From Candidatus Omnitrophota bacterium (GTDB lineage Bacteria; Omnitrophota; Gorgyraeia; Pluralincolimonadales; Pluralincolimonadaceae): DNA of 64,000 nucleotides. Shown in pieces: positions 8,186 through 62,976 of the stretch. Numbering within the stretch: the first letter of the stretch is position 1; each line of letters opens with the position of its first letter. The notes under the pieces were generated by a model that searched no databases, had not been told where the DNA came from, and was given only the letters and a program-made list of their open reading frames with translations. The stretch spans positions 194,989-258,988 of the forward strand of contig JAQUPL010000002.1 of assembly GCA_028716565.1 (NCBI GenBank). Direction: 5' to 3'. A program made the translations under genes and the position numbers.

Positions 8186-8234
8186 GGGGAGAGCGAAATA
8201 GTAATTAAACCGGTATAAAAAGGAGGGCGGTAAA

Positions 8235-9140: not shown

Positions 9141-9173
9141 GCCCGTTCGTATTAAATTAGGAAAGGCCGGCAT

Positions 9174-18258: not shown

Positions 18259-18282
18259 CAAGAGTCAGGATTGTGCTATAAT
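18255..18282 (+). promoter_or_regulatory. Consensus sigma70 promoter TTGACA-N16-(TGc)TATAAT for gltBD
   Basis: TTGACA lies at 18255..18260 and overlaps the GH35 stop codon. TATAAT at 18277..18282 is preceded by a TGn extended -10 (TGC at 18274..18276). Confidence 0.5.
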
Positions 18283-18379: not shown

Positions 18380-22955
<4,576 letters not shown>

Positions 22956-22963
<8 letters not shown>

Positions 22964-24395
22964 TACAAAGAGGTTCATGAAGATAAAACGGGAGGCCTCG
23001 TCCTACCGCGCGGTATGCGACCGCGTAAAGGATTACAGGGAGGTGGCTGTCCTGCGCCCGGAGGAGAAGTCGAAGGACCAGAGCTCGCGCTGCATGGACT
23101 GCGGAGTGCCGTTCTGCCATTGGGGCTGCCCGATCGGGAACTATATACCGGAATGGAACGACCTCATCTTCCGCGGCCAGTGGAAAAAGGCCATTGATGT
23201 CCTTCTGGTGACGAACAACCTGCCCGAGGTGACGGGCAGGATCTGCCCGGCCCTGTGCGAATACGCATGCGTCCTCGGGATAAATGATGACCCTGTCACG
23301 ATACGCGAAGACGAGCTGGATATTATAGAATATGCTTTCAAAGAGGGATGGATCAGGCCGAACCCTCCGAAAAAACGCACCGGTAAAAAAGTCGCGGTCA
23401 TCGGCTCCGGCCCGTCAGGCCTTGCCTGCGCCGACCAGTTGAATAAAGCCGGGCACAAGGTCACGGTATTCGAAAGGGACGACAAGATAGGCGGCATATT
23501 GCGTTACGGTATCCCTGATTTCAAATTAGATAAATCCGTCCTCGACAGACGCATAAAGATATGGAAGAAAGAGGGGATAGAGTTTAAGGCGTCCGTTGAT
23601 GTAGGCGCGGATTATAAGGCGGCCAAATTGAATAAGGATTTCGACGCGGTCGTGCTTGCCGGTGGAAGCCGTTTTCCCCGCGATCTCAAGATACCCGGCC
23701 GAGAGCTGGGCGGAATACATTTCGCGATGGATTTTCTCGTCCAGTCGAATAAAAGGGTCTCCGGAATCAAGATACCTTCCGGAAAGCTCATCGACGCGAA
23801 GGGTAAAAAGGTTGTCGTGATCGGCGGCGGCGACACAGGCGCTGACTGCGTAGGCACCGCGCACAGGCAGGGCGCGTCATGCATCGTCCAGATAGAATTA
23901 TTGCCCCAGCCTCCGGAATGCCGCACAAAAGATTTCCCGTGGCCGAAATATCCGATGTTGTTAAAGACGACCTCCAGCCACCAGGAAGGAGGCGATCGCT
24001 ATTGGTCGGTCTCGACCAAGAAGTTTGAGGGCGCCGGCGGCAAGGTCAAGAAACTTTCCTGCGTGAAGGTCGAGATAGGCCGCGACGATAAGGGCTGCAT
24101 GCTGATAAAAGACGTCCCGGGAAGCGGATTCGAGATAGAGGCGGACTTGGTCGTCCTGGCTCTCGGTTTCATGCACCCCGAGAAAGAGCTCATCTCACAG
24201 CTCGGCGTCGAGCTCGACCCGCGCGGCAACGTCAAGACCGACGAACATTACCTCACATCCGTAAAAGACGTATTCGCGGCAGGCGATATGAGGAGGGGCC
24301 AGTCGCTCATCGTCTGGGCCATCTCCGAGGGCCGCCGCGCCGCCCACTCCATCGACAAATACCTCATGGGATCCACCCGCCTGCCGGCTATATAA
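22956..24395 (+). CDS. gltD: Glutamate synthase small subunit (NADPH)
   Basis: Fe-S cysteine clusters (CMDCGVPFCHWGCP, CPALCEYAC) and two dinucleotide-binding motifs (VAVIGSGPSGLACA, VVVIGGGDTGADC). Translationally coupled to gltB. Confidence 0.9.
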
Positions 24396-48836: not shown

Positions 48837-49922
48837 GTGCCTGAAGCGGGTTCTTCAATACATAAGACCCTCAAAGAGATCGCGCAATTAATAGACGGCG
48901 AGGTTATAGGCGACGGGAATGTCGTCATAACCGGGATAAGCGGGATAAGGGAAGCGGAAGAAGGGGACCTGACATTCCTCGCTAACCCGCGCTATGCTCC
49001 TCTGATGGATACGACTAGGGCGTCGGCGATCATAACCTCCCGGGAGACGAAGACCGCTCCCAGGCCGATGATCCGCGCGGATAACCCCTCTATGGCGTTT
49101 GCCAAGGTGATCTCCATCCTTATGCCGAACGACCAGAAGTATCCCGTCGGTATACATCCTGCCGCGGTGGTCGGGAAGAACGTAAAACTCGGGCAGGATG
49201 TCGCGCTCCAGCCGTACGTCGTGATCGACGACGACGCCGCTATAGGGGACAGGACTATAATTTACGCCGGCAGTTATATCGGCAATCGCGCGAAGATAGG
49301 AAGCGACTGCCTGATCTATCCGAACGTCGCGATACGCGATAAGGTCGAGATAGGGAACAGGGTGATAATCCATTCCGGCACGGTCATAGGCAGCGACGGG
49401 TTCGGGTTCGCGACGGTCGGCGGAGAGCATCACAAAATACCCCAGATCGGAACGGTCCTTATCGAGGACGACGTAGAGATAGGCGCCAATGTCACTATCG
49501 ACAGGGCGCGGTTCGGGAAGACTGTGATAGGGAAGGGCACCAAGGTAGACAACCTTGTCCAGATAGCCCATAACGTCATAGTCGGAGAGAATTCCATAAT
49601 AATAGCGCAGGCCGGAATATCCGGTTCGACGGTCATAGGCAAGAACGTCACGATCGCCGGCCAGGCGGGCCTGGTCGGACATATAACGATCGGGGATAAT
49701 GCCGTGCTGGCTGCGCAGGCCGGTGTCACGAAGTCGGTCCCGGCGAATACATGTGTCTCGGGATACCCCGCAAGGCGGCACGATGAGGCGAAGAGGCTGA
49801 ATGCCTTTGTCACGCGCCTGCCGCAGATCGTCGATGAACTGAAAAAACTCGAAGAAAAATTTCAACAGTTGGAGAAGAAGATAGCAGATGGAACAACAGC
49901 TGACAATAAAAAACGCGGTTGA
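48837..49922 (+). CDS. lpxD: UDP-3-O-acylglucosamine N-acyltransferase
   Basis: LpxD N-terminal domain plus hexapeptide repeats. Confidence 0.9.
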
Positions 49923-51219
49923 AACCGAAGGGACCGGCCTGCATACAGGGACGAAGGTGAAAATGCGCCTTTTGCCCGCCGAACCTAATTCCGGCATAAG
50001 CTTTATCCGCGTAGACCTTCCGGATTCGCCGGTGATAAAAGCGAATACCGCCAATGTCATGGAATCCAGCCGCAAACTGAGGAGGACATCGCTTTCATGC
50101 AACGGCGTAGAAGTCCATACGGTGGAGCACCTGCTGTCGGCGCTCAGCGGGATGATGATAGACAATATCAAGGTCGAGATAAACGGCCCCGAGCTTCCCG
50201 GTTTCGACGGTTCCGCGATGCCGTTTGTCGAGCTGATAAAGAAAGCAGGCGCGCAGTCGCAGCCGGAACAGAAAAGGACCTTTACGGTAAAAGACCCGAT
50301 CTGGCTCGAGGAGAACGATACGGTCCTGGCCATACTTCCCGATTCCGAATTAAAGATATCTTATATGTTGAGCTACGACCACCCGTTGCTCAGGTCCCAG
50401 TACGTCTCGGTCGTGATAACGCCTGAGACTTATGAGAAAGAGATAGCCCCGACGAGGACATTCTGCCTGGAGGCCGAGGCCGAGGAGCTGAGACGGCAGG
50501 GGCTGGGCAAAGGCGCGAACTTCGAAAACACCCTCGTTGTCGGCAAGGACGGCGTCATAAAGAATAAATTAAGGTTTAGCGATGAGTTCGCGCGCCACAA
50601 AGTCTCGGACCTTATGGGAGACCTTTACCTTTTGGGCATGCCCTTAAAAGGCCATGTGATAGCCGTAAAATCCGGGCATCCGCTCAACGTCAGGCTTTTA
50701 CAGAAGATAAGGCAGCAGCAGGAGCGCATGCGCGCCGGCGCCATGGAAAGCAAAGGCCCCGGCATCGTTGGCACTCCCCTCGATATCAACGATATAAAGA
50801 AGATACTGCCTCACCGTTACCCGTTCCTGTTGGTTGACAGGGTCATAGAACTCGAGGACGACAAGAGAGCGGTGGGCATAAAGAACGTCACGATGAACGA
50901 ATTTTATTTCCCGGGTCATTTTCCGAACATGCCGATAATGCCCGGAGTGCTCATAATGGAAGCGCTGGCGCAGGTCGCCGGCGTGATGATGCTCAACAAA
51001 AGGGAAAATCTCGGGAAATACGCTTTCTTCATGTCGATGGACAAGGTAAAATTCCGTAAAGCGGTCGTGCCCGGGGACCAGCTTGTCCTTGAGACCGAGG
51101 TGCTGAAACTGCGCTCCAAGACCGTCCAGGTGAAGGCTGTCGCGAGCGTCGACGGGAAAATTGTGGCCGAAGGCGAATTCATGTTCGCCCTGGTCGGCGG
51201 TGAAGAGGCTTCGGAATAA
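49888..51219 (+). CDS. lpxC-fabZ: Bifunctional UDP-3-O-acyl-N-acetylglucosamine deacetylase / 3-hydroxyacyl-ACP dehydratase (LpxC-FabZ fusion)
   Basis: LpxC N-terminal part (TGLHTG...ISF, HTVEHLL...). The C-terminal ~150 aa are a hotdog FabZ domain ([13 protein letters not shown]...FPGHFP...PGVL). Confidence 0.9.
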
Positions 51220-51274: not shown

Positions 51275-52045
51275 GTGCAAATCCACTCTACAGCGATCGT
51301 AGATAAAAAGGCAGAGTTGGCCGACGGAGTTGAAGTCGGCCCTTATTGTATAATCGGTCCGGACGTCAAGATCGGCAGCGGAACCGTAATAGGCGCGCAC
51401 GCCGTGATCGACGGGCACACGACTATCGGCCGCGATAACAGGATATTCACCGGGGCCGTGATAGGCTCCATCACGCAGGACCTGAAATTCAAGGGCGAAA
51501 AAAGTTACGTCAAGATAGGCGACAACAATATCATTCGCGAATACGTTACCGTAAATATGGGAACGAACAAAGAGTCCTCCACCGTGATAGGCAATAAGGT
51601 CCTTTTGATGGCATATTGCCATGTGGCGCACGACTGCGTCATAAAAGACGGGGCAATCATCGCCAATTGCGGCACGTTCGCCGGTTATGTCACCGTCGAG
51701 GAGAAGGCCGATATCGGGGGCCTTACCGGCGTCCACCAGTTCGTTCGCATAGGAAAGCTCGCTATCATAGGCGGCTGTTCGAAAGTCACGCAGGACGTGG
51801 TGCCTTATTCGATGAGCGACGGCCATCCGCTGAAAGTATACGGCCTCAATACCGTCGGGCTCGAAAGGGCCGACGTCCCCCAGGCATCGCGGAATTCCCT
51901 TAAAAAAGCTTTCAAGATACTCTTTAATTCGGGGCTTACCGTCCCTCATGCGCTGGACGAGATAAAGTCGGAAGTCCCGGAATGCCCCGAAGTAGACTAC
52001 CTTATAGATTTCACGGCTGCCTCTGAACGGGGCATCTCAAGATAA
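51275..52045 (+). CDS. lpxA: Acyl-ACP--UDP-N-acetylglucosamine O-acyltransferase
   Basis: Hexapeptide-repeat protein with an LpxA-type C-terminal helical domain; GTG start. Confidence 0.9.
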   Translation: MQIHSTAIVDKKAELADGVEVGPYCIIGPDVKIGSGTVIGAHAVIDGHTTIGRDNRIFTGAVIGSITQDLKFKGEKSYVKIGDNNIIREYVTVNMGTNKESSTVIGNKVLLMAYCHVAHDCVIKDGAIIANCGTFAGYVTVEEKADIGGLTGVHQFVRIGKLAIIGGCSKVTQDVVPYSMSDGHPLKVYGLNTVGLERADVPQASRNSLKKAFKILFNSGLTVPHALDEIKSEVPECPEVDYLIDFTAASERGISR

Positions 52046-52051
52046 AATAAT

Positions 52052-52861
52052 ATGGACACCATAGGACTTATCGCGGGTAAAAGCGATTTTCCGCTGCTTT
52101 TCGCCAAAGCAGCGAGATCGAAAGGCGTGAAGGTTATCGCCGTGGGCATCGAGGGCGAGACCAGGCCCGAGGTGGAAAAGCTCGTCGACAAATTTTACTG
52201 GGTAAAACTCGGCGAACTCTCCAAGGTGCTCGAGGTCTTCAAGGCCGAAGGCGTCAAAAAAGCCGTGATGGCCGGCGGGGTCACTAAATCCAGGATATTC
52301 AACGAAGCGCTGAAGATCGACGGGTTGATGAAATCGATCCTTGTCAGGGCTCTGGACAAAAAAGACGATACCCTGTTATCGATGATCACCGCAACGCTGA
52401 AATCGGCCGGCATAGACCTGCTGGATTCGACGCTTTTCCTCGAGGACCTGCTGCCGGCAGAAGGCGTGCCGACGAAGGCGAAACCGGCACTTTCGCAAGA
52501 GGAGGATATCAGGTTCGGCGCGAGGGTCGCGAGGGAAGTGGCCGGCCTGGATATAGGGCTTTCGATATTCGTAAAAGATAAGGCCGTAATAGCGGTCGAG
52601 GATATTGAGGGGACCGACGCTATGATAAGACGCGGCGGACGGCTTGCCGGCGCGGGCGGAGTCATAATAAAAGTCGCGCGACCGAAGCAGAATATGAAAT
52701 TCGACATCCCGGTCATAGGGCCTCAGACTATACGTTCGATGGTTGAGGTGAAGGCGGCCTGCCTCGCGATAGAGGCAAAGAAGACGCTTATAATAGATAA
52801 AGAAGAAACGATCGCTCTCGCGGACAATAATGGTATTTCCATAATAGCGGTAAAAATGTGA
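52052..52861 (+). CDS. lpxI: UDP-2,3-diacylglucosamine hydrolase LpxI (DUF1009 family)
   Basis: N-terminus MDTIGLIAGKSDFP is typical of LpxI and the gene sits in the lpx cluster. Confidence 0.7.
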   Translation: MDTIGLIAGKSDFPLLFAKAARSKGVKVIAVGIEGETRPEVEKLVDKFYWVKLGELSKVLEVFKAEGVKKAVMAGGVTKSRIFNEALKIDGLMKSILVRALDKKDDTLLSMITATLKSAGIDLLDSTLFLEDLLPAEGVPTKAKPALSQEEDIRFGARVAREVAGLDIGLSIFVKDKAVIAVEDIEGTDAMIRRGGRLAGAGGVIIKVARPKQNMKFDIPVIGPQTIRSMVEVKAACLAIEAKKTLIIDKEETIALADNNGISIIAVKM

Positions 52862-53538
52862 GCGGTATCCTTATATTAGGCATAGAGGACGAAGGCCTTA
52901 AGCGCGCCAAAAAAGCGCTGAAAGACGCTGATCACCAGGTCTATTCCTGCGATGAGGCCGATATAAAACCGGTCTACGAAGAGACGCTGAAGAGGCGGCC
53001 GGATGTCATAGTCCTCGATTTCGCCTCCCCCAAGAATTTCGATGCGCAGGCTGTCCTGCGCGCCTTCAAGAAAGACAGGTTCCTGAAAGATACTCCTGTC
53101 TTTGCCGTCCTGCCTGAAGACGGGATGCGGCTTCTCGATAACCTTTCAGGCATCGGCGATTTCATAATTGCCCCGTTTAACGGCGCAGAGCTTGTAGCGC
53201 GCGTCAAGGCGCTCCTCAAAAAAGTCATACCGACCGATTCCGATGACATGATAAAGATAAGCGACCTAATCATAGATGTATCAAGATACGAAGTGTCATT
53301 GAACGGCAGCAAGGTGGAGCTCACGTTCAAAGAATACGAACTCCTTAAATTCCTCGCCTCAAACAAAGGCCGCGTCTATTCCCGGGACCAGCTGCTCGAC
53401 AAGATCTGGGGATACGATTACTACGGCGGTACCCGCACGGTGGATGTCCATATCCGCCGCCTCCGCAGCAAGATAGAGGACCGGAAGCATACCTTTATCG
53501 AGACCATCCGCAACATCGGCTACAAATTCATCGCTTAA
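52858..53538 (+). CDS. Orphan OmpR-family response regulator with a degenerate receiver domain; candidate GlnR-like nitrogen regulator
   Basis: C-terminal winged-helix trans_reg_C domain (LTFKEYELLKFLASNKGRVYSRDQLLDKIWGYDYYGGTRTVDVHIRRLR). In the receiver domain the conserved KPF lysine is APF, the conserved Thr is Leu, and the N-terminal acidic pair is E-D; the phospho-acceptor Asp is retained (VIVLDF). No histidine kinase is adjacent. GTG start overlaps the lpxI stop. Confidence 0.8.
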   Translation: MSGILILGIEDEGLKRAKKALKDADHQVYSCDEADIKPVYEETLKRRPDVIVLDFASPKNFDAQAVLRAFKKDRFLKDTPVFAVLPEDGMRLLDNLSGIGDFIIAPFNGAELVARVKALLKKVIPTDSDDMIKISDLIIDVSRYEVSLNGSKVELTFKEYELLKFLASNKGRVYSRDQLLDKIWGYDYYGGTRTVDVHIRRLRSKIEDRKHTFIETIRNIGYKFIA

Positions 53539-53557
53539 TCCCGTAACCTGCTTTTTA

Positions 53558-53658
53558 CCTTGAAATTTAAGCCTCGCTCGGCCTTTCTTTATTACTCGCC
53601 TCTGCCAAATATCTACTGCGTCATAAACCGGCTCTTTGCGAGGCGTTAAATTTCAAGG
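53558..53658 (+). repeat. ~100-nt palindromic intergenic repeat element, copy A, with 11-bp perfect terminal inverted repeats CCTTGAAATTT / AAATTTCAAGG
   Basis: About 80% identical to the reverse complement of 61090..61188. Conserved internal blocks are CGGCCTTTCTTTATTACTCG and ACTGCGTCATAAACCGGCTCTT. The inner stem is GCCTCGC/GCGAGGC. Confidence 0.5.
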
Positions 53659-53678
53659 CATGACACCCGCATGCAAGA

Positions 53679-53731
53679 TTAACCAAGATTTAACGCGCAT
53701 GTAATACGGATTTAACATTCGCCCGTATACT
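53679..53731 (+). promoter_or_regulatory. Four half-sites (TTAAC, TTAAC, GTAAT, TTAAC) phased at exactly 11 bp (53679, 53690, 53701, 53712), then a TATACT -10 element at 53726..53731, just upstream of the rubredoxin-like/porin/amt operon
   Basis: Direct-repeat architecture ending 9 bp upstream of the -10 with no -35, typical of OmpR/PhoB/GlnR-class activator sites. The 13-mer GGATTTAACATTC recurs identically at the glnA promoter. Confidence 0.45.
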
Positions 53732-53738
53732 TACGGGT

Positions 53739-53921
53739 ATGAAGATCAAAGAAGATGATCTTGAGCGGAAGTACAGGTGCGCAAAGTGCGGCTACTTAAC
53801 GCAGCGGCAGGCGCCCCCCAGGAGCTGTCCGATATGCAGGGCCGGCTCCGAAGCTTTTGACGACATCGGTGTCGACAGGTCAACGGAGAAAAGGGCGGTC
53901 TTTAATCCAAGATTAATATAG
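53739..53921 (+). CDS. Small rubredoxin-like zinc-ribbon protein
   Basis: CAKCGY...CPICRAG, i.e. CxxC-N17-CxxC. The start codon lies 7 nt after the -10 element, so the transcript may be leaderless. Small ORF, moderate support. Confidence 0.4.
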   Translation: MKIKEDDLERKYRCAKCGYLTQRQAPPRSCPICRAGSEAFDDIGVDRSTEKRAVFNPRLI

Positions 53922-53992
53922 GGTTAATCTGTTTGTAACATTGATAGTTATACTTGTTTGGTGAGAACATTGGGAGAAAGAGAGAAGATCAG

Positions 53993-54784
53993 ATGTTCCG
54001 TCAAAACGTTTGGCTGGTCATATGTATCATAGGCGCGCTTTCCTTAATTACCCCCGCGGCCTGTTTCGCGACCGCAACCACCCACATCTGGGCGCCATCC
54101 ACTGACGTCCAGGCGTACGGAGTCGTCCACATAACCCCGGGAGACGTGTATATTCCCGTAAACAAGGACAAATTCGGGAACAGGGTCAACGTAATAACTA
54201 ACGAAGGGCTCACAGTCGGTGTTTTGCCTTTCGAGAAATTCAACATTGAGGTAGGTTTCGACAACAAGACAGGGTACGGGGAGCTGGACAATTACCCGAT
54301 ATATTTTAACGCAAAAGGTGGGATACCTGAAGGTGCGTTCGGTGAATGGTTCCCCGCCCTGGCTGTTGGCGCTTATGATATAGGGACGAAGGCTGACAAG
54401 ACCAATAGCAACGTGCTCTACTTCAAAGGCGCAAAGACATTCAAAATTAATGATTTCAACCTCGGCCGTCTCTCAGTCGGATATTTTAACGGCAACGGCA
54501 AATTGTTACGGGGTCCGAACGGCGGAAAAGACAACGCCGACGTCTTCGGCGCCTGGGAGCGCACGATGTCAGAGATATCGGACAAGCTCTGGCTTTGCGT
54601 TGAATACCAGGGGACGAAGAGCTCCTACGGTTGCTGGAATTTCGGCGGGTCATGGAAATTCTCGGATAATGTCTCGCTGCTCGTAGGGTTCGATCATTAC
54701 AACAACAGAAACTTTGCTGATACGGTTACAGTACAAGTCGATATAGATTTCGACGCGTTCAGCAATCTGTTCAAGAAGAAATAG
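53993..54784 (+). CDS. Outer-membrane beta-barrel protein, probable porin, encoded upstream of amt
   Basis: Signal peptide (MFRQNVWLVICIIGALSLITPAACFA), alternating amphipathic beta-strand pattern and C-terminal Phe-containing strands. The track start at 53954 is a TTG. Confidence 0.55.
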   Translation: MFRQNVWLVICIIGALSLITPAACFATATTHIWAPSTDVQAYGVVHITPGDVYIPVNKDKFGNRVNVITNEGLTVGVLPFEKFNIEVGFDNKTGYGELDNYPIYFNAKGGIPEGAFGEWFPALAVGAYDIGTKADKTNSNVLYFKGAKTFKINDFNLGRLSVGYFNGNGKLLRGPNGGKDNADVFGAWERTMSEISDKLWLCVEYQGTKSSYGCWNFGGSWKFSDNVSLLVGFDHYNNRNFADTVTVQVDIDFDAFSNLFKKK

Positions 54785-54793
54785 AGGTGACCC

Positions 54794-56161
54794 ATGTTTA
54801 AGAAAATAACGGCTTTTCTCGCGATATTCACGATAACGATAGGAGTGTCCTGCCTGGCGTTTGCCCAGGATCCCAGCGGCGCGGAGACGCTGGCGCAGAA
54901 CCCGAACTCTCCGGTCGATTACGTATGGGTGCTCGTCTGCGGCTTCCTGGTATTCTTCATGCAGGCCGGGTTTGCGATGGTGGAGGCCGGTTTCTGCAGG
55001 GCCAAGAACGCCACAAACCTCATGGCAAAGAACACTATAGACTTTGTCACTGCGTCGCTTATTTTCATGGCTTTTGGCTTCGCCTTCATGATGGGAAATG
55101 ACTACAACGGCATCATAGGTACTTCCGGATGGTTTCTTCACGGCCCGAACTATGATGTCGGAAGATACCTCCTGTTCTTCTGGCAGTTGGTATTTGCCGG
55201 GACCGCAGCTACGATAGTCTCCGGAGCTATCGCGGAAAGGCTGAAATTTAAAGCCTATTTCCTTTACAGTATCATGGTCACGGCCGTTATATATCCAATA
55301 TATGGGCATTGGGTATGGGGTGGAGGATGGCTTTCCAAACTGCCTTTTGGGATCGGTCATGTTGATTTTGCCGGCTCCGGAGTTGTCCATGCGATAGGCG
55401 GTTTTGTAGGTCTTGCGGGTGCCATGGTCCTCGGGCCGCGTTTCGGAAAATTCAACAAGGAAAGAAAGCCAAGGGCTATACCGGGCCACAGCATAACCCT
55501 CGCCGCGCTAGGCACTTTTATCCTCTGGTTCGGATGGTTTGGGTTCAATCCCGGATCGACTTTTTCCGCTCACCAGCTCAGGATAGCGGTGATAGCCGTC
55601 AACACCAATCTCGCCGCAGCGGCCGGCGCGGCAGTTGCAATATTGCTTGTTTTCATGAAGACGAAGAAATGGGATGTCGGCATGATGCTTAACGGTTGCC
55701 TTGCAGGCCTTGTCGCTGTTACCGCACCCTGCGCTTGGATCGAGGCGTGGGCCGCGGTTGTCATAGGTGCCATCGCCGGAACGATTGTAGTCGTCGGCGT
55801 CTATTTCTGGGAGAACCGCGGTGTGGATGATCCGGTAGGCGCTGTCAGCGTCCACGGGTTAAACGGTGTCTGGGGCTTGATAAGCGTCGGGCTGTTTGCC
55901 GACGGAACATACGGTCTGGGTTCTACTTCAGCGCCTTTCGTAAAGGGCCTGTTCTATGGTGGCGGGTACGGCCAGCTGATAGCCCAGCTGATAGGCGCTG
56001 CCGTATGCGTTTCATGGGCGTTCATATTGGGCTTTATCGGGTTCAAATTGATGGATAGGTTATTCGGCATAAGAGTTTCGCCGCAGGAGGAACTCAAGGG
56101 CTTGGATATTCCTGAGCACGGGACGCCCGCTTATCCCAATTTCTATACGTATAGTAATTAG
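54794..56161 (+). CDS. amt: Ammonium transporter (Amt family) with cleavable signal peptide
   Basis: Amt signature regions (DFAGSGVVH, GFNPGS); 455 aa. Confidence 0.9.
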   Translation: MFKKITAFLAIFTITIGVSCLAFAQDPSGAETLAQNPNSPVDYVWVLVCGFLVFFMQAGFAMVEAGFCRAKNATNLMAKNTIDFVTASLIFMAFGFAFMMGNDYNGIIGTSGWFLHGPNYDVGRYLLFFWQLVFAGTAATIVSGAIAERLKFKAYFLYSIMVTAVIYPIYGHWVWGGGWLSKLPFGIGHVDFAGSGVVHAIGGFVGLAGAMVLGPRFGKFNKERKPRAIPGHSITLAALGTFILWFGWFGFNPGSTFSAHQLRIAVIAVNTNLAAAAGAAVAILLVFMKTKKWDVGMMLNGCLAGLVAVTAPCAWIEAWAAVVIGAIAGTIVVVGVYFWENRGVDDPVGAVSVHGLNGVWGLISVGLFADGTYGLGSTSAPFVKGLFYGGGYGQLIAQLIGAAVCVSWAFILGFIGFKLMDRLFGIRVSPQEELKGLDIPEHGTPAYPNFYTYSN

Positions 56162-56175
56162 AGAGGGACAAAAAG

Positions 56176-56514
56176 ATGAAGAAGATAGAAGCGGTTGTCC
56201 GCATAGAAAAACTGGAAGAGATCACTGAGGCCCTGGATAAGTTCGGTTATCCCGGAATGATGGTCACTCATATAGAGGGGCATGGCCGCCAGAAAGGGCT
56301 CGCGGAGCAGTTCAGGGGAAGGGAGTATAAGGTAAATTTCCTTCCTAAGATAAAGATCGAGATCGTGGTCAAGGATTCCGATGTCGAGAAGCTGGTCAAG
56401 GCGATAACCGGTATCGCGAGGACCGGCGAGATCGGAGACGGAAAGATATTCATATATGCCGTCGAAGATACAGTCAGGATACGCACCGGTGAAAAAGGCG
56501 AAAGCGCTATATAG
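56176..56514 (+). CDS. glnK: Nitrogen regulatory protein P-II
   Basis: MKKIEAVVR...GRQKG...T-loop RGREYKV; no conserved Tyr51 equivalent is obvious, though the T-loop is present. 112 aa, adjacent to amt. Confidence 0.9.
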   Translation: MKKIEAVVRIEKLEEITEALDKFGYPGMMVTHIEGHGRQKGLAEQFRGREYKVNFLPKIKIEIVVKDSDVEKLVKAITGIARTGEIGDGKIFIYAVEDTVRIRTGEKGESAI

Positions 56515-56517
56515 GCC

Positions 56518-56697
56518 ATGGTTGATAAAGAATTGATAGAGAAGATCCGCAGGCTGAAGGAGGACAGGGGCTATACTCTCTATGATCTGGCGAAAAGGGT
56601 CGACATTCAGCCGTCGACCCTTGAGCGCTGGTTCAAGACAAACCGCATAAACAGGATTTATGCCGAGACGGTAAGGGTGAGGCTGGGGATCAAGTAA
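56518..56697 (+). CDS. 59-aa helix-turn-helix protein between glnK-1 and amt-2
   Basis: MVDKELIEKIRRLKEDRGYTLYDLAKRVDIQPSTLERWFKTNR...; YTLYDLAKRVDIQPSTLERW is a classic HTH. It starts 4 nt after the glnK stop and is not in the ORF track (under 60 aa). Confidence 0.45.
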   Translation: MVDKELIEKIRRLKEDRGYTLYDLAKRVDIQPSTLERWFKTNRINRIYAETVRVRLGIK

Positions 56698-56759
56698 TTT
56701 TTTGTCGCTATTATCCCAATTGGTTACTCAGTTTGCTAAGCAAAAGAGAGGAGACGAAA

Positions 56760-58097
56760 ATGGTAAAAATTATGAAGAGCCTGCCGTTCTGGTTCTTCGC
56801 CGCTTTCCTGTTTTTTACAGTGATCGCGACAGTTGTCGCGGCCGAGGAAGTAGCGCCTGCGGTGAAAGTCGACTCGGGCGATACGGCGTGGCTCCTTATG
56901 TCAGCTGCGCTGGTATTATTGATGACACCTGCCCTGGCATTTTTCTACGGCGGCCTCGTGCGAAGGAAGAATGTGCTTTCGATCCTGATGCAGTGTTTTA
57001 TGGTGATGTGCCTGATAACAATCCAGTGGGTACTTTTTGGCTATAGCCTCGCATTCGGTCCGGATGTCAAAGGCGTCATCGGGAGCCTGGCGTGGTTCGG
57101 GTTAAAAGGCGTGGGCCTCGACCCCAATCCGGCGTATGCCGCCACGGTCCCCCACCAGGCGTTCATGATATTCCAGGGTATGTTCGCTATCATCACACCT
57201 GCCTTGATATTGGGCGCGTTCGCCGAGAGGATGAAGTTCTCGACGTTCTGCGTATTTGCGCTTGTATGGGCGACTCTTGTATATGATCCGGTCTGCCATT
57301 GGATCTGGGGTGTCGGCGGTTTCCTGAGGGCCGACGGGGCGCTTGATTTCGCGGGAGGCACGGTCGTCCACATCAATGCCGGCGTCGCAGCCCTGGCGAG
57401 CGCCCTGGTATTGGGAAAACGCAAAGGATACCCGGACAAGATATCGCCTCCGCATAACCTTCCGTTCGCGGTATTGGGCGCGGGGTTATTGTGGTTCGGG
57501 TGGTTCGGGTTCAACTCAGGCAGTGCCTTAGGCTCGGGCAGCCTGGCGACTAGCGCTTTCGTGGTTACCCACATAGGAGCCGCCTCGGCCGGACTTACGT
57601 GGGCGCTTCTGGATTGGATATTCAGTTCCCGTTCGACGGTATTGGGTATTATTACCGGCGCCGTCGCCGGACTTGTCGCGATAACCCCGGCTTCGGGTTT
57701 TGTGAACCCGGTCGGAGCGATATGGATAGGCATCGGCGTATCGGTCTTTTGCTATATGGCCGTCGCATTACTCAAGGTGAAATTCGGTTACGACGATTCC
57801 CTTGACGCTTTCGGTGTCCACGGGATCGGCGGCATGTGGGGAGCCCTGGCGACAGGCCTCTGGGCAACGAAGGCCGTAAACGCGTCCGGGAATAACGGGT
57901 TCTTCTACGGGAACCCGGCGCAATTCTTGATACAGTTCAAGGCTGTTATTATTACCGCGGTCTATTCGTTCGTCATGACCTTTGTGATACTTAAGGCGCT
58001 TAACGCGGTGATGGGCGTGCGCGCCTCCGAGCAGGATGAGCGCATCGGCCTGGACCTCACACAACATCGCGAAGCCGGATATACGGTATTGGACTAA
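56760..58097 (+). CDS. amt: Ammonium transporter (second copy)
   Basis: Start set at the ATG at 56760, which follows the RBS AGAGAGGAG; the track ORF begins at a TTG at 56733. Signal peptide plus Amt core. Confidence 0.9.
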   Translation: MVKIMKSLPFWFFAAFLFFTVIATVVAAEEVAPAVKVDSGDTAWLLMSAALVLLMTPALAFFYGGLVRRKNVLSILMQCFMVMCLITIQWVLFGYSLAFGPDVKGVIGSLAWFGLKGVGLDPNPAYAATVPHQAFMIFQGMFAIITPALILGAFAERMKFSTFCVFALVWATLVYDPVCHWIWGVGGFLRADGALDFAGGTVVHINAGVAALASALVLGKRKGYPDKISPPHNLPFAVLGAGLLWFGWFGFNSGSALGSGSLATSAFVVTHIGAASAGLTWALLDWIFSSRSTVLGIITGAVAGLVAITPASGFVNPVGAIWIGIGVSVFCYMAVALLKVKFGYDDSLDAFGVHGIGGMWGALATGLWATKAVNASGNNGFFYGNPAQFLIQFKAVIITAVYSFVMTFVILKALNAVMGVRASEQDERIGLDLTQHREAGYTVLD

Positions 58098-58105
58098 CAG
58101 GGAGA

Positions 58106-58453
58106 ATGAAAATGAAATATATTATCGCGATAATCCAGCCTGACAGGCTCGATGAGGTACTGGCAAAGTTGGAAGAAAAAGAGATACACCTGGTCACCGT
58201 GACCGGAGTTATGGGCCGCGGCCGCCAAAAAGGCATCTCCGAGGTCTACAGGAGCCATAAGGAGGCGGGAAGCCTGCTTAAAAAGGTCAAGCTCGAGATA
58301 GCCGTAAACGACGATTTCGTCAAGCCCGCGGTGGAAGCGATAAAGTCCGGCGCCCACACCGGCCACATCGGGGACGGGAAGATATTTATTCTCGATTTGC
58401 CGGAATGTATTCGGATACGTACAGGCGAGAAAGGAAATCCCGCAATCGGATAG
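58106..58453 (+). CDS. glnK: Nitrogen regulatory protein P-II (second copy)
   Basis: P-II fold with T-loop RGRQKGISEVYRSHK; 115 aa. Confidence 0.9.
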   Translation: MKMKYIIAIIQPDRLDEVLAKLEEKEIHLVTVTGVMGRGRQKGISEVYRSHKEAGSLLKKVKLEIAVNDDFVKPAVEAIKSGAHTGHIGDGKIFILDLPECIRIRTGEKGNPAIG

Positions 58454-58486
58454 GTTTAAGCGGGTGACTGCCGACGGAGCCCTTGG

Positions 58487-58509
58487 CCCTGTTGCCCGAA
58501 GCAACAGGG
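58487..58509 (+). other. Perfect 9-bp stem-loop CCCTGTTGC-CCGAA-GCAACAGGG between glnK-2 and glnA
   Basis: GC-rich hairpin without a following T tract; possibly an RNA processing or pause element. Confidence 0.35.
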
Positions 58510-58570
58510 ACGAGGTGCTCGGCAGGCAGGACCCGCCCTAGCGAACCGATTGTTCGGGAGAGATTAAGAT

Positions 58571-58613
58571 TTAACATTTGCGTAATATGGATTTAACATT
58601 CATTTTGTATACT
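58571..58613 (+). promoter_or_regulatory. Second copy of the phased-repeat activator site (TTAAC 58571, GTAAT 58582, TTAAC 58593) plus a TATACT -10 at 58608..58613, upstream of glnA
   Basis: Same spacing and the same 13-mer GGATTTAACATTC as at 53708..53720; the -10 lies 10 bp after the last half-site. The glnA RBS AAGGGAGG is at 58628..58635. Confidence 0.45.
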
Positions 58614-58644
58614 TTTGGCATAAAAATAAGGGAGGTAAGCCAGC

Positions 58645-60156
58645 ATGAAAGGGAAAGCAGTAAAGAAGGAGATAGTGGAAGTGAAGACGAAGAATCCGCT
58701 CGCGAACGGCTCGTTTGACGACAAGGCCGCGCGAGATGTGATGAAACTCATCAAAGACAAGAAGATCGATATTATCGACCTGAAGTTCAACGACCTGCCG
58801 GGGCTGTGGCAGCATTTCTCGATACCGGCATCCGAACTGCTCGAGATGGACGATATTACCCGTTCCATCTGGGTCGACGGCATCGGGTTTGACGGTTCTT
58901 CGATCCGCGGTTTCCAGAAGATACAGGAATCGGACATGATCATGATACCGGACCCGGCTACGGCGGTCATAGACCCGGTATGCGAAGTCCCGACCTTAAG
59001 CATCATCTGCGACATCTATGACCCGTTGACGCGCAAACCGTACAGCCGCGATCCACGTTATATCGCGAAGAAGGCGGAGAAATATTTGAAGGAGACCGGC
59101 ATTGCCGATTCCGTATATTTCGGGCCCGAAGCCGAATTCTTCATCTTTAACGATATCCGCTTCGACCAGAACGAGAATTCGGGCTACTATTTCATCGACT
59201 CGGTCGAGGGCGACTGGAACACCGGCAAGAAAGAAGACCCGAACCTTGGGTACAAGATACGCTACAAGGAAGGGTATTTCCCTGTCCCGCCGCACGATTC
59301 GCTCCAGGACTTAAGGAGCCGCATAATCCTCAAGATGAAGGAAGCGGGAGTGAACATTGAAGTCCATCATCATGAAGTCGCCACAGCCGGCCAGTGTGAG
59401 ATCGACATAAAGTTCGACAAGCTGACCAAAATGGCCGACAGCCTATTGATGTACAAATACATCATAAAGAACATGGCAAAAAAAGCCGGTATGGTCGCGA
59501 CGTTCATGCCGAAACCGCTCTTCGCGGATAACGGCTCAGGCATGCATTGCCACCAGAGCCTTTGGAAGAACGGCACGAACCTTTTCTTTGACAAGAACGG
59601 CTACGCGCTCTTAAGCCAGACCGCCAAATATTATATCGGCGGACTTTTAAAGCACGCGAACAGCCTCATGGCCTTCTGCGCACCGACGACAAACTCGTAC
59701 AAGAGGCTCGTCCCGGGCTACGAAGCGCCTGTCAACCTCGTCTATTCTGCGCGCAACCGTTCGGCAGCTGTCCGCATCCCGATGTACAGCGACAGCCCGA
59801 AATCCAAGAGGATCGAGTTCAGGCCTCCTGACCCGTCATGCAACGGCTACATCGCCTTCAGCGCAATGCTCATGGCCGGGTTGGACGGTATCATCAACAA
59901 GATAGACCCGGGCAAGCCGAACGACAAGGACCTCTTCGAATTAAGCGAAGAGGAAATGGCTAAAATACCCACGGTCCCGTCGTCTTTGCGCAGGGCTATC
60001 GACGCTTTGGAAGCGGACCACGAGTACCTGCTTAGAGGCGGGGTATTCACCAAGGATGTCATAGACATTTGGCTTGAATACAAGAGGAAGAAAGAGATAG
60101 ATGCCGTGAGAATGCGTCCGCATCCTTACGAGTTCTACCTGTATTTCGATATTTAA
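58645..60156 (+). CDS. glnA: Glutamine synthetase type I-beta
   Basis: Collinear with E. coli GlnA (DIRFD..., [23 protein letters not shown]). It carries a ~30-aa N-terminal extension. The adenylylation-loop Tyr is replaced by Phe ([12 protein letters not shown]). Confidence 0.9.
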
Positions 60157-60163
60157 GTTTATA

Positions 60164-60181
60164 GTAGAGGGGATCCTCTAC
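60164..60181. terminator. Hairpin GTAGAGG-GGAT-CCTCTAC between convergent glnA and a minus-strand membrane protein gene
   Basis: 7-bp stem with AT-rich flanks on both sides; candidate bidirectional terminator. Confidence 0.4.
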
Positions 60182-60184
60182 CAG

Positions 60185-61021
60185 TTATTCGAGAGGCGGT
60201 TTATAAGTAGGGGCGGTTCCTAAAGGATTGGCTGGCTGCCCACCCCCAATGTTGGGCGCAGGAGCTGCCCCTTCTTCTTTTTTTGAAAATGCCAGATAAC
60301 CCATCGTGAAGAGCCCTACGACGGGAATGACCGTAATAATCCCGATCCATCCTTCCTTGCCGCGCGCCAAGGCGATCTTGTACCAGAGGAGACCGAAGAG
60401 GAATAGGTAGCATAACGGCCCTAACGGCGGTATTAATCCGGAAAGGAGCAGCAACAGCCAGGTATACCGCACATTCCCGATATTGCATGCCAGGAATAAG
60501 TTTGCGATGGGTATCCAGGCCATCCATCCATTTTGGGTATCCGTTTTCCCTGCGATAACCTGAAGGCATACGGCCAAGTAGATGTAATAGATCAGGGAAC
60601 CGGTTATTATGACGCCGAGAAATGCCATTAGAAACGCTATTATGACGGCTAACAAAGCCTTGCTTTCTTTATCTGATAGTTTGTTTTCAGGGTTTTTTCC
60701 TGAAGGGCCCGATATCTTTTCTTCCTGCGGCCCGCTTGGCGGCGTCGCCATCGATCCGGTCACAGGATTTGCCGCCGCCGGGACGATTTCAGCCGGAGGC
60801 ACGGCAGGCTTAAATTCCACTGCCTGCCCGTTTATCTCCTGTATCTCGGAGAGGTCGTATGTCATTTCGGTAACGCCGTAAATATCGACGGTTATGGTAT
60901 CGTTGGTTATCGCCTTAATATTCCCCTCGATCTTCTTTCCGGACCTGAAAGTTACCGTATCCGCCCAAGCGCTCACCGCGAACAATACGACCGCCGCGCA
61001 TATGATCAACGCCTTTTTCAT
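60185..61021 (-). CDS. Hypothetical membrane protein (signal peptide, small beta-rich domain, Pro/Ala/Gly linker, C-terminal multi-TM region)
   Basis: Start set at MKKALIICAAVVLFAVSAWA with an AGGAGG RBS; the track ORF extends to 61096. No confident family assignment. Confidence 0.55.
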   Translation of the reverse strand: MKKALIICAAVVLFAVSAWADTVTFRSGKKIEGNIKAITNDTITVDIYGVTEMTYDLSEIQEINGQAVEFKPAVPPAEIVPAAANPVTGSMATPPSGPQEEKISGPSGKNPENKLSDKESKALLAVIIAFLMAFLGVIITGSLIYYIYLAVCLQVIAGKTDTQNGWMAWIPIANLFLACNIGNVRYTWLLLLLSGLIPPLGPLCYLFLFGLLWYKIALARGKEGWIGIITVIPVVGLFTMGYLAFSKKEEGAAPAPNIGGGQPANPLGTAPTYKPPLE

Positions 61022-61089
61022 TACTGCCTCCTGTATGGTTAAATTGTATCCAAACTTCCCCTTGAAGGCAAGCACTTTTACTGGTATAC

Positions 61090-61188
61090 CCTGCAATTTA
61101 ACGTCTCGCGAAGAGCCGGTTTATGACGCAGTATGCTATAACTCGCTGCGAGTAATAAAGAAAGGCCGAGAGAGACTTAAATTGCAGG
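61090..61188 (-). repeat. Copy B of the ~100-nt palindromic repeat element (inverted relative to copy A), terminal inverted repeats CCTGCAATTT / AAATTGCAGG
   Basis: The reverse complement aligns to 53558..53658. The terminal inverted repeats differ from copy A (TTGAA versus TGCAA) yet stay perfectly self-complementary, and the inner stem shows a C:G to T:A exchange. It sits in the divergent region between the membrane protein gene and nadE. Confidence 0.5.
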
Positions 61189-61257
61189 AAAAAGGGGCAA
61201 AATTCTTTTCTTGCATTTTTGGAAAAATTTGATATAATAAGGGGCTAAATTAGCGAG

Positions 61258-62976
61258 GTGAAAATGGATCCGATCCGCTTTGGCATAGCCCAAATGAACT
61301 CCACCGTGGGTGACCTTCAGGGCAACAAAGAGAAGATAATAAAATTCATAAGTGACGCAAGATCATTGGGTTGCGACATAGTAATCCTCCCGGAGCTCGC
61401 CATAACCGGTTATCCGCCCGAAGACCTCCTCCTTAAGCCCCAGTTTGCGGATGACGCCGTGAAAGCGCTTAACGAAATAGTCCACAAGACCGATAATATA
61501 ATAGTTATAGTGGGTTGCCTCGACAAAGCCAAGGATGGGCTGTACAATTCAGCCGCTCTTATTCGCGACAAGGAACTTATCCACATATACCATAAGATAC
61601 TCCTCCCGAATTATGGCGTATTTGACGAAAAACGCTATTTCAAGCCCGGAAACGAGTCTTTTGCCTTCAAGTTCGAAGGCCTCAAGATCGGGCTGAATAT
61701 CTGCGAGGACATATGGGAATGTTGCGGCCCCGCGAGCTTTGAGGCGGTCGACATGGGCGCGCAGGTCATGATCAATATTTCGGCATCGCCTTACCACGCC
61801 GGCAAGATACAGGCGCGCGAGAAGATGCTTGTGGAGAGGGCCCAGCAGACCGCCGCTATCGTGATCTACGATAACATGGTGGGCGGCCAGGATGAGCTCG
61901 TCTTCGATGGCGGGAGCATGGTTATAGGATGGAAAGGCAGCGTTTTAACGCGCGGAAAGCAGTTCGAAGAGGATATCGCGCTCTTCGACCTCAATCCCGA
62001 AGAATATCTTAAATACAGGAAGGTCCCAAAGAGGAAGCCGGCGGTAAATAATTACAGGGTAAAGGAGTTATCGCTGAAGAGGTGCGAGGTAAAGATAAGG
62101 CCGCCTTTCCCGCCGCGCCGCCTCGAAAAATTAGGCAGCATAGAGGAGATATACAAGGCGCTTGTCCTGGGCACCAGGGATTATATGACGAAGAATGGCT
62201 TCAAGAAAGCGGTCGTCGGCGTAAGCGGGGGGATAGATTCGGCCTTGACCGCGTGCATAGCCGTCGACGCGCTCGGAAAGGATAACGTCGCCGCGGTCAC
62301 GATGCCGTCCATGCATACAAAGGAAGAGACGCGCGTGGACGCCATAGCCGTCGCGAAGAATTTAGGCCTAAAGACGGCGGCCATACCCATAAATACCATC
62401 TACCAGGCATATATGCGTATGCTTAAGAAGGAATTCAAGGACGCCAAGACAGATATAACCGAAGAGAACCTGCAGGCGAGGATCCGCGGCAACATCCTCA
62501 TGGCGCTTTCGAATAAATTCAACTGGCTCGTCCTGACGACCGGGAACAAGAGCGAGATGTCGACGGGTTATTGCACCCTCTACGGCGATATGGCCGGGGG
62601 ATTTGCGGTCATAAAAGATGTATTAAAGACCGTCGTTTACCAGTTGGCAGAATACAGGAACGCGGTAGCCGGCAAGGAGGTCATACCGGTCACGACGATA
62701 AAGAGGGCGCCGACCGCCGAATTGAAACCCAACCAGAAAGACCAGGATACGCTTCCTCCTTACCACGTGCTGGACGATATCCTGAAGTTATATGTCGAAG
62801 AAGACAGGTCGGCGAGCGAGATCATCGCCCAGCGTTTCGACGCGAAGACGGTCAAGAAGGTCATCTCGAGGGTCGACAAGAACGAATATAAGAGGCGCCA
62901 GAGCCCGCCAGGGGTCAAGATAACCCCGAAGGCATTCGGCAAGGACCGCAGGGTCCCAATAACGAACAGATATTAA
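61258..62976 (+). CDS. nadE: Glutamine-dependent NAD+ synthetase (nitrilase domain plus NAD synthetase domain)
   Basis: N-terminal CN-hydrolase domain (IAQMNSTVGD..., ELAITGYPPEDL) and a C-terminal PP-loop (VVGVSGGIDSAL). Confidence 0.9.
   Translation: MKMDPIRFGIAQMNSTVGDLQGNKEKIIKFISDARSLGCDIVILPELAITGYPPEDLLLKPQFADDAVKALNEIVHKTDNIIVIVGCLDKAKDGLYNSAALIRDKELIHIYHKILLPNYGVFDEKRYFKPGNESFAFKFEGLKIGLNICEDIWECCGPASFEAVDMGAQVMINISASPYHAGKIQAREKMLVERAQQTAAIVIYDNMVGGQDELVFDGGSMVIGWKGSVLTRGKQFEEDIALFDLNPEEYLKYRKVPKRKPAVNNYRVKELSLKRCEVKIRPPFPPRRLEKLGSIEEIYKALVLGTRDYMTKNGFKKAVVGVSGGIDSALTACIAVDALGKDNVAAVTMPSMHTKEETRVDAIAVAKNLGLKTAAIPINTIYQAYMRMLKKEFKDAKTDITEENLQARIRGNILMALSNKFNWLVLTTGNKSEMSTGYCTLYGDMAGGFAVIKDVLKTVVYQLAEYRNAVAGKEVIPVTTIKRAPTAELKPNQKDQDTLPPYHVLDDILKLYVEEDRSASEIIAQRFDAKTVKKVISRVDKNEYKRRQSPPGVKITPKAFGKDRRVPITNRY

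Follow-up and report, generated by a model that had tools for sequence, protein, structure and literature searches.

OmpR-type GlnR has been described as the nitrogen regulator of Actinobacteria (PMC10235972, PMC10704036, PMC5826061). Its binding site, the GlnR box, consists of a 5-nucleotide (nt) a site (gTnAc) and a b site (GaAAc) separated by 6 nt (n6); the a site in Mycobacterium smegmatis reads (t/g)TAAC, and usually two boxes, that is, four sites, are found (PMC5826061; PMC10704036). In the complex of GlnR with RNA polymerase, four protomers are arranged head-to-tail, with the proximal one downstream of the -35 position (PMC10235972). Does a regulator of this type also occur outside of Actinobacteria? 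We analyzed a stretch of 64,000 nt from a Candidatus Omnitrophota bacterium (contig JAQUPL010000002.1, positions 194,989 to 258,988; this whole stretch is referred to here as the window), in which the gene of an OmpR/PhoB-family protein is followed by amt, PII, and glnA genes. Our analysis supports, with good confidence, the assignment of this gene as a GlnR-type nitrogen regulator: an OmpR/PhoB winged helix joined to a pseudo-receiver, with no kinase encoded nearby, that would activate transcription from tandem sites.

The actinobacterial GlnR proteins (Streptomyces coelicolor, M. smegmatis, Mycobacterium tuberculosis, and Saccharopolyspora erythraea; PDB 8HIG, 8HIH, and 8HML) have the same two-domain architecture. 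Like the regulator described here, they carry an atypical receiver that keeps the Asp but lacks the conserved Thr and Lys, and have no adjacent kinase; as we predict for the regulator, they target amt-PII and glnA and use 5-nt sites of the gTnAc/GaAAc type with n6 spacers, usually four. The hosts in our case, however, are Omnitrophota (diderm, with lipopolysaccharide [LPS] genes) and Chloroflexota rather than Actinobacteria, the pentamer preferred in Omnitrophota is TTAAC and not GAAAC, and the gene ends an lpx operon (Omnitrophota) or a gltS operon (Dehalococcoidia) instead of being a free-standing glnR. Other described systems are less similar. NtrC, NtcA, the MerR-type TnrA/GlnR, AmtR, and NrpR control the same genes (amt, glnK/glnB, and glnA) but belong to unrelated protein families with unrelated operator types, and none of them is encoded next to the nitrogen island in the window. 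Helicobacter pylori HP1043 (2HQR), streptococcal RitR (5U8K), and cyanobacterial NblR likewise use degenerate receivers as constitutive dimerization modules, and regulators of these types appeared among our sequence, fold, and family matches; they are nonetheless much more distant in sequence, with unrelated regulons and other target sites.

An OmpR-type regulator with a degenerate receiver

The regulator gene is the final cistron of a bamA-ompH-lpxD-lpxC/fabZ-lpxA-lpxI operon, in which its GTG start codon and the stop codon of lpxI overlap (GTGA). Pfam searches of the protein revealed Trans_reg_C as its sole domain (E, 3.8e-29), bar weak, sub-threshold N-terminal matches to PDE8A_N and to GlnR_1st (PF21695, the model of the GlnR N-terminal domain; 1.9e-3). 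Response_reg gave no match at E ≤ 0.01, and neither a MerR-type helix-turn-helix (HTH) nor a sigma-54 AAA+ activator domain was found. An AlphaFold2 model with 56 homologues as input (mean pLDDT, 86.8) predicted a receiver of normal (beta-alpha)5 fold (beta1, residues 3 to 7; alpha1, 12 to 23; beta3, 50 to 54; beta4, 81 to 85; beta5, 99 to 104; alpha5, 109 to 123), followed by a flexible linker and the winged helix. Foldseek comparison of this model to the PDB retrieved generic OmpR/PhoB regulators and did not tell the subfamilies apart.

We aligned the receiver in two ways, with HMMER against the PhoB receiver and with MAFFT together with CheY, PhoB, and OmpR (three reference sequences entered by hand), and the two alignments agreed. 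The acceptor Asp is present as D54, equivalent to CheY D57 and PhoB D53. The position of PhoB T83 is occupied by L85, and that of PhoB K105 by A105 ("IIAPF"). At the two acidic-pair positions after beta1 stand G8 and I9, with E10-D11-E12 two residues downstream. An earlier reading made from the sequence alone (the sequence-only reading) had proposed an OmpR-type regulator with a degenerate receiver that retains the Asp, replaces Lys by Ala (APF) and Thr by Leu, and weakens the N-terminal acidic pair. The domain searches and alignments confirmed this description: the Lys and Thr substitutions held in the alignment to CheY and OmpR, and the weakening of the acidic pair takes the form of a shift by two residues.

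An exhaustive search of 1.84 billion cluster representatives returned 444 homologous representatives at E ≤ 1e-30. The closest database proteins (74 to 92% identical) came from metagenome-assembled genomes of Candidatus Omnitrophota, and the next group (41 to 59% identical), which is very large, came mainly from Dehalococcoidia and other Chloroflexota, including Thermoflexus. The best 150 of the 444 representatives all scored at least 148 bits, versus 137 bits for GlnR in the PDB search, and GlnR was not reached among these 150. Our homologue set covers eight other Omnitrophota species and about 70 Chloroflexota species, with 81 non-redundant loci. In the alignment of the 81 members, the Lys position holds A, T, E, S, H, I, or a shifted K, with Lys itself in 0 of the 17 members displayed. 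At the Thr position, Ile or Leu stands in front of a Pro, and the acceptor Asp is replaced by Glu or another residue in many Chloroflexota members. At the level of the protein family, the domain is, by its sequence, a pseudo-receiver. Residues P48, D49, P80, A83, D101, F102, P106, E111, and R115 of the N-terminal half are invariant or nearly so. The beta5/alpha5 face bearing D101, E111, and R115 is one that we take to be the dimerization face of PhoB-family regulators.

The best sequence matches of the regulator in the PDB were GlnR of S. erythraea (8HIG, 136.7 bits; 8HML, 120.7 bits) and M. tuberculosis (8HIH, 116.5 bits), ahead of RegX3 (111.5 bits). When the profile of the 81-member family was compared to the PDB, GlnR scored 183.2 and 175.6 bits, RegX3 155.5 bits, and MtrA 142.3 bits. 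A neighbor-joining tree was calculated from the region equivalent to residues 76 to 224 (the C-terminal ~150 residues), with GlnR represented by two fragments taken from the family-profile search and with PhoB, OmpR, KdpE, MtrA, RegX3, PhoP, WalR, and two paralogues from the fetched loci as the outgroup. Both GlnR sequences nested inside the regulator family. The split of the family plus GlnR from the nine other OmpR-type sequences was recovered in 500/500 bootstraps, and GlnR fell outside the family in only 46/500. The Omnitrophota proteins formed one clade (496/500 bootstraps) within Chloroflexota-type diversity, a placement that may reflect horizontal acquisition, with which it is compatible. 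Over residues 76 to 224, the regulator shows identities of 45% and 41% to the two GlnR fragments and of 28 to 42% to seven references, among which WalR and PhoP (42%) exceed M. tuberculosis GlnR; unlike this C-terminal part, the receiver half is not recognizably GlnR-like.

The DNA contacts of M. tuberculosis GlnR have been assigned to T151, K153, R171, W179, R188, T189, and H193 and, further, to R195, R196, R198, T211, R213, N214, and Y217 (PMC10235972). All 14 are identical in the regulator, at an offset of +5; 12 of the 14 are invariant in the 81-member alignment, and the other two (R200 and N219) are nearly so. Most of these residues are also common to PhoB. The identity of the contacts agrees with a GlnR-like specificity, short of proof. 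When the receiver alone was compared to the PDB, the top scores were those of the PleD and PhoB receivers, and GlnR was absent among the best 60 of 98 matches at E ≤ 1. Thus, the relationship to GlnR rests on the part from alpha4 to the C terminus. On this basis the regulator would belong to the GlnR lineage, and it most likely works as GlnR does.

Could the protein instead be a conventional PhoB/PhoP-type response regulator, phosphorylated by a kinase encoded elsewhere? PhoB (TIGR02154) ranked first in NCBIfam, and the automatic annotation at JGI names the homologues PhoP or "alkaline phosphatase synthesis response regulator PhoP." The recognition helix of PhoB is nearly identical, PhoB shares D101, E111, and R115 (PhoB numbering) of alpha4-beta5-alpha5, D54 is kept, and E10/D11 lie near the pocket. 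However, the NCBIfam score was 144.7 bits versus a cut-off of 296.2. PhoB depends on phosphorylation by PhoR, carries the complete D-D-D-T-K set, and serves the phosphate regulon through the site CTGTCAT, whereas the regulator lacks the Lys, the Thr, and the acidic pair, its family varies at the Asp, Response_reg is not matched, and the context and target sites are those of nitrogen genes. We found no HisKA or HATPase_c domain in any open reading frame (ORF) of at least 150 residues in the window, and no histidine kinase within 9 kb of the homologue in loci L001 and L003; pst and pho genes were likewise absent from the window, and neither they nor kinase genes turned up in the loci with Pfam-annotated gene calls. 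The regulator is flanked in the window by lpxI upstream and a rubredoxin-like ORF downstream, and in most loci by lpxI or gltS upstream and amt or glnA downstream. The earlier statement that no kinase gene is adjacent therefore holds for these flanks and for the domain search of the window. Given this evidence, we regard a phosphorylation-dependent PhoB/PhoP-type regulator as highly unlikely.

Conserved gene neighborhood and phased repeat arrays

The linkage of the regulator to nitrogen genes is conserved. The nitrogen genes lie on the strand of the regulator in 71 of the 81 non-redundant loci. In the Omnitrophota loci that are long enough, the regulator is followed by rbx-porin-amt-PII-amt-PII-glnA-nadE; lpxI is directly 5' of the regulator in 8/8 other Omnitrophota species, and the full upstream operon from bamA to lpxI was seen in loci L001 and L002. 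Most Chloroflexota loci have the order gltS-REG-amt-PII-glnA (REG, the regulator), often followed by nadE. In Dehalococcoidia, the regulator lies 10 to 70 nt after the genes for a three-subunit glutamate synthase and directly before amt-PII-glnA, and in another Chloroflexota group it lies directly before glnA. None of the Chloroflexota loci has lpx genes flanking the regulator.

The window contained three arrays (P1, P2, and P3) of 5-bp direct repeats at exact 11-bp spacing, each followed by TATACT. P3 sits upstream of a porin-like gene, and the fourth, distal site of P2 is degenerate. Exact copies of the composite TTAAC-n6-GTAAY-n6-TTAAC stand at two places in the window (53690 and 58571), versus ~0.13 matches expected by chance even with up to two mismatches and ~0 expected exact ones. 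A two-strand scan of the window, scored for three sites in phase, returned P1, P3, and P2 only. The sequence-only reading had placed the regulator 140 nt upstream of two promoters carrying phased direct repeats. The repeats are real, and the first promoter does follow the gene by ~140 nt; the glnA promoter, however, is 5 kb away, and the array at 53902 to 53939 is a third one beyond the two named there.

The composite was present at the same two promoters, P1 and P2, in every Omnitrophota locus covering them; the P3 array was conserved only in L006. In Chloroflexota, nearly all arrays stood on the coding strand, 40 to 175 nt before amt, PII, or glnA, with the consensus GTAAC-n6-TTAAC-n6-GTAAT-n6-G(T/A)AAC, then 9 to 10 nt, then TAnAnT. 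Across 1.2 Mb of loci, 64 of 70 arrays fell just 5' of amt, PII, glnA, rbx, and porin genes, in a portion that makes up 8% of the sequence (binomial P, ~5e-63), and at least one array was found in 54 of the 71 loci with nitrogen genes.

The matches listed in a metagenome-wide scan for the exact pattern, which give no estimate of regulon size, were mostly noise, made up of AT-rich chance matches and unrelated 11/22-bp tandem repeats. Among them, there were nevertheless a few loci in which a regulator, an array, and amt or glnA occur together (L088, L105, L134, L153, L183, and L121/L127/L158), in contigs of 28 to 64% GC, suggesting that further lineages carry the system. Separately, long iteron-like tandem arrays of 11/22 bp (TTTAACAATCGTGTAACAATCG...) in metagenome contigs of ~30% GC matched the pattern by chance; these contigs (L086, L095, L112, L117, L132, L160, L184, L192, L202, and L204) showed no link to nitrogen genes.

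With TATACT taken as the -10 box, the four sites would extend from about -59 to -22, with the proximal site within the -35/-10 spacer at all three promoters. None of the three has a usable -35 element (at P1, 2/6 at a 17-nt spacer), and a scan for the sigma-70 consensus predicted nothing at P1 or P3. These results fit dependence on an activator. The single sigma-70 match at P2 (58571) reuses two repeats as -35 and -10; we rejected it since the downstream TATACT and the four-site frame are conserved across phyla. The layout of the arrays, as read from the sequence, matches the published layout of GlnR boxes, with 5-nt sites, n6 spacers, and a proximal site between -35 and -10. It would also be analogous to PhoB/PhoP at the pho box, where tandem head-to-tail binding uses 11-bp-phased direct repeats in place of a -35 element.

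Reasoning from the M. tuberculosis GlnR transcription activation complex, we infer that the regulator binds these arrays, activates the promoters, and responds to nitrogen without being phosphorylated. Protomers would bind head-to-tail to three or four 5-bp sites (nTAAC or GTAAT) 11 bp apart, so as to occupy about -59 to -22 at three promoters that have a good TATACT -10 box and no -35 element, with the most proximal protomer placed between -35 and -10. The pseudo-receivers would hold the protomers together through the alpha4-beta5-alpha5 face, independently of phosphorylation. When nitrogen is scarce, the bound array would recruit RNA polymerase and switch on the rubredoxin-like gene, the porin-amt-PII-amt-PII operon, and glnA. 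Because the regulator is made from, and translationally coupled to, a housekeeping lpx operon, its control is probably post-translational. The earlier suggestion of a GlnR-like regulator is thus supported by the best PDB matches, the tree, the linkage to nitrogen genes, and the arrays of GlnR-box type. The "global" scope attached to that suggestion finds no support in the window, where arrays stand at three promoters of one island and gltBD has none.

The same protein and the same sites could also work in the opposite sense, with the regulator blocking RNA polymerase at -59 to -22 when nitrogen is plentiful and being released under limitation. The position of the proximal site inside the -35/-10 spacer at all three promoters would suit a repressor, and actinobacterial GlnR represses some of its targets, such as ald, according to PMC4140684. 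Yet promoters that lack a -35 element would be weak without an activator, and an arrangement of four sites, one of them downstream of -35, is exactly what the activating GlnR complex shows (PMC10235972). We therefore think that repression is an unlikely account of these promoters, and activation by the GlnR-type regulator is the reading that we retain.

A further alternative is that the repeats are bound by another protein, with the regulator in charge of envelope or LPS genes. In the window, the candidate would be a 59-residue HTH protein (HTH_26) encoded within the target operon. In Dehalococcoidia, it would be an NrpR-like protein (WHD_RNase_R plus NRD1_2, the type of the archaeal nitrogen repressor), whose gene closes many of the gltS-REG-amt-PII-glnA-nadE superclusters (for example, L003 12982 to 13977) and in some loci has a second copy immediately upstream of the regulator. 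The Dehalococcoidia clusters thus hold two different candidate nitrogen regulators as judged by sequence. Translational coupling of the regulator to lpxI in all Omnitrophota loci would fit a role in the envelope. Direct repeats phased at 11 bp are, however, the signature of tandem OmpR-family binding, whereas operators of dimeric HTH proteins and NrpR are palindromes, and no palindrome is common to the three promoters. The arrays co-occur with the regulator in two phyla, but the small HTH gene, the lpx linkage, and NrpR do not; NrpR is missing from the window, and lpx genes are missing beside the regulator in the Chloroflexota loci. We consider binding by such other proteins extremely improbable.

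Several observations weigh against the assignment as a GlnR-type activator. The outgroup behind the 500/500 split was small, and seven of its nine sequences were entered by hand, not taken from database records. The recognition helix is nearly identical in PhoB, so that residue identity alone would not predict the site. The GlnR homodimer is stabilized by a charge network of Asp50, Arg52, and Thr9 (Lin et al. 2014, in the account given in PMC10704036), and the regulator lacks the Arg52 and Thr9 partners of the conserved Asp and hence this network: A56 stands at the +2 position from D54 that corresponds to Arg52, and Arg occurs there in none of the displayed family members. The receiver half is no nearer to the receiver of GlnR than to generic receivers, and GlnR_1st and Response_reg match 28/81 and 22/81 members, respectively, all weakly. 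With D54 and the nearby E10/D11 kept in Omnitrophota, weak phosphorylation may be possible. Sites that reach to -22 could equally block RNA polymerase. Finally, the clusters encode other small DNA-binding proteins, namely, the 59-residue HTH protein and the NrpR-like protein of Dehalococcoidia.

Genes and other features of the window

Table 1. Coordinates, in window positions, of the regulator gene, the repeat arrays, and the genes around them
Feature	Positions	Strand	Details
lpxI	52052..52861	+	gene directly 5' of regulator
GlnR-type OmpR/PhoB-family regulator gene (probable assignment)	52858..53538	+	226 aa
Pseudo-receiver	52858-53226		residues 1-123
Winged-helix DNA-binding domain	53248-53535		residues 131-226
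Codon of D54	53017-53019		
Codon of L85	53110-53112		
Codon of A105	53170-53172		
P1	53679..53731	+	TTAAC 53679, TTAAC 53690, GTAAT 53701, TTAAC 53712 (array 53679-53716); 9 nt; TATACT 53726-53731
Rubredoxin-like ORF (RUBY_RBDX)	53739..53921	+	60 aa; first gene 3' of P1
P3	53902..53954	+	TTAAT 53902, TTAAT 53913, TTAAT 53924, GTAAC 53935 (array 53902-53939); 9 nt; TATACT 53949-53954
Target operon	53993..58453	+	porin-like, amt, PII, HTH, amt, PII
Porin-like gene	53993 (likely start) to 54784	+	first gene of operon
amt	54794-56161	+	
PII	56176-56514	+	
Cro/C1-type HTH gene	56518-56697	+	59 aa; HTH_26, 5.7e-6
Second amt	56733-58097	+	
Second PII	58106-58453	+	
P2	58571..58613	+	TTAAC 58571, GTAAT 58582, TTAAC 58593 (array 58571-58597); 10 nt; TATACT 58608-58613
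glnA (glutamine synthetase)	58645..60156	+	target of P2
gltB and gltD (glutamate synthase large and small subunits)	18380..24395		followed by nitroreductase gene

The rubredoxin-like ORF has its ATG 7 nt after the -10 box of P1, without a ribosome-binding site (53726 to 53741), so that its mRNA would be leaderless, here and in L006. More distant rubredoxin-like orthologues have a leader of ~30 nt with GGAG. The porin-like protein is secreted and is kept in all Omnitrophota loci; it had no Pfam or NCBIfam match, and it may form a channel in the outer membrane that passes ammonium or some other nitrogen compound. The HTH gene, which lies 3' of the first PII gene and 5' of the second amt, is shorter than the 60-residue limit of the ORF list. 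It was also called in L001, and it may encode a second regulator inside the operon. Away from the island, gltBD has a near-consensus sigma-70 promoter (TTGACA-17-TATAAT, 18254 to 18282), at which the phased-site scan of the window found no GlnR-type array.

Two kinds of long hairpin stand beside the promoters; in an Rfam scan of 52000 to 61500 at E ≤ 1, they matched no Rfam RNA and nothing else relevant was found. A 107-nt element with a long imperfect hairpin (~-36 kcal/mol) lies just past the regulator stop codon (53556 to 53662). Two inverted partial copies of it, 94 to 95% identical, lie at 61095 to 61183, between a minus-strand ORF (60185 to 61096) and nadE, and so bracket the nitrogen island. 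Related copies occupy the same place in L007, L008, and L010. The element could be similar to a repetitive extragenic palindrome or to a miniature inverted-repeat transposable element, or it could be an insulator or terminator. Downstream of the second PII gene and ahead of the glnA promoter is an 86-nt GC-rich, perfect-looking hairpin (58455 to 58540; ~-56 kcal/mol), a 96% identical copy of which lies in L006 (10910 to 10989), there between the regulator and P1. Its different position in this related Omnitrophota genome suggests that it is a mobile hairpin element.

Upstream of the regulator, the lpx operon includes an lpxC-fabZ fusion gene (443 residues; 49888 to 51219), and the fusion is kept in the Omnitrophota loci. 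Elsewhere in the window, within 3608 to 11091, a large GH2 glycosidase with a C-terminal Glucodextran_C (SLH-like) module is followed by three paralogous proteins of ~300 to 340 residues with Glucodextran_C as their only Pfam match. These genes are flanked by two LacI-type regulators, and a GH35 beta-galactosidase is encoded further on.

Range of the system across phyla

Our literature searches, whose coverage was incomplete, gave no account of an OmpR-type GlnR from Chloroflexota, Dehalococcoides, or Omnitrophota. The presence of a GlnR-type system in Omnitrophota and Chloroflexota as well, as suggested by the sequences, would be a notable phylum-level extension of its known range. We lean toward the view that OmpR-type GlnR and its GlnR-box regulon did not originate as an invention of Actinobacteria and form an old nitrogen module of several phyla (Actinomycetota, many Chloroflexota, Omnitrophota, and further lineages of 28 to 64% GC), in which the promoter architecture was kept while the phospho-chemistry of the receiver was lost to differing degrees.

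A conserved regulator, gene neighborhood, and site architecture of this kind change the picture of which groups use which nitrogen regulator. They also offer a ready regulon model for uncultivated Dehalococcoidia and Omnitrophota, in which these proteins are now annotated as "PhoP," and a natural series of receivers that differ in their acceptor residue (Asp, Glu, or neither), for studying pseudo-receiver control. Since the regulator is hard-wired beside PII, Amt, glutamine synthetase, and glutamate synthase genes in compact genomes, a comparison of lineages would be informative and, if the multi-phylum view is true, could expose the signal that switches GlnR on.

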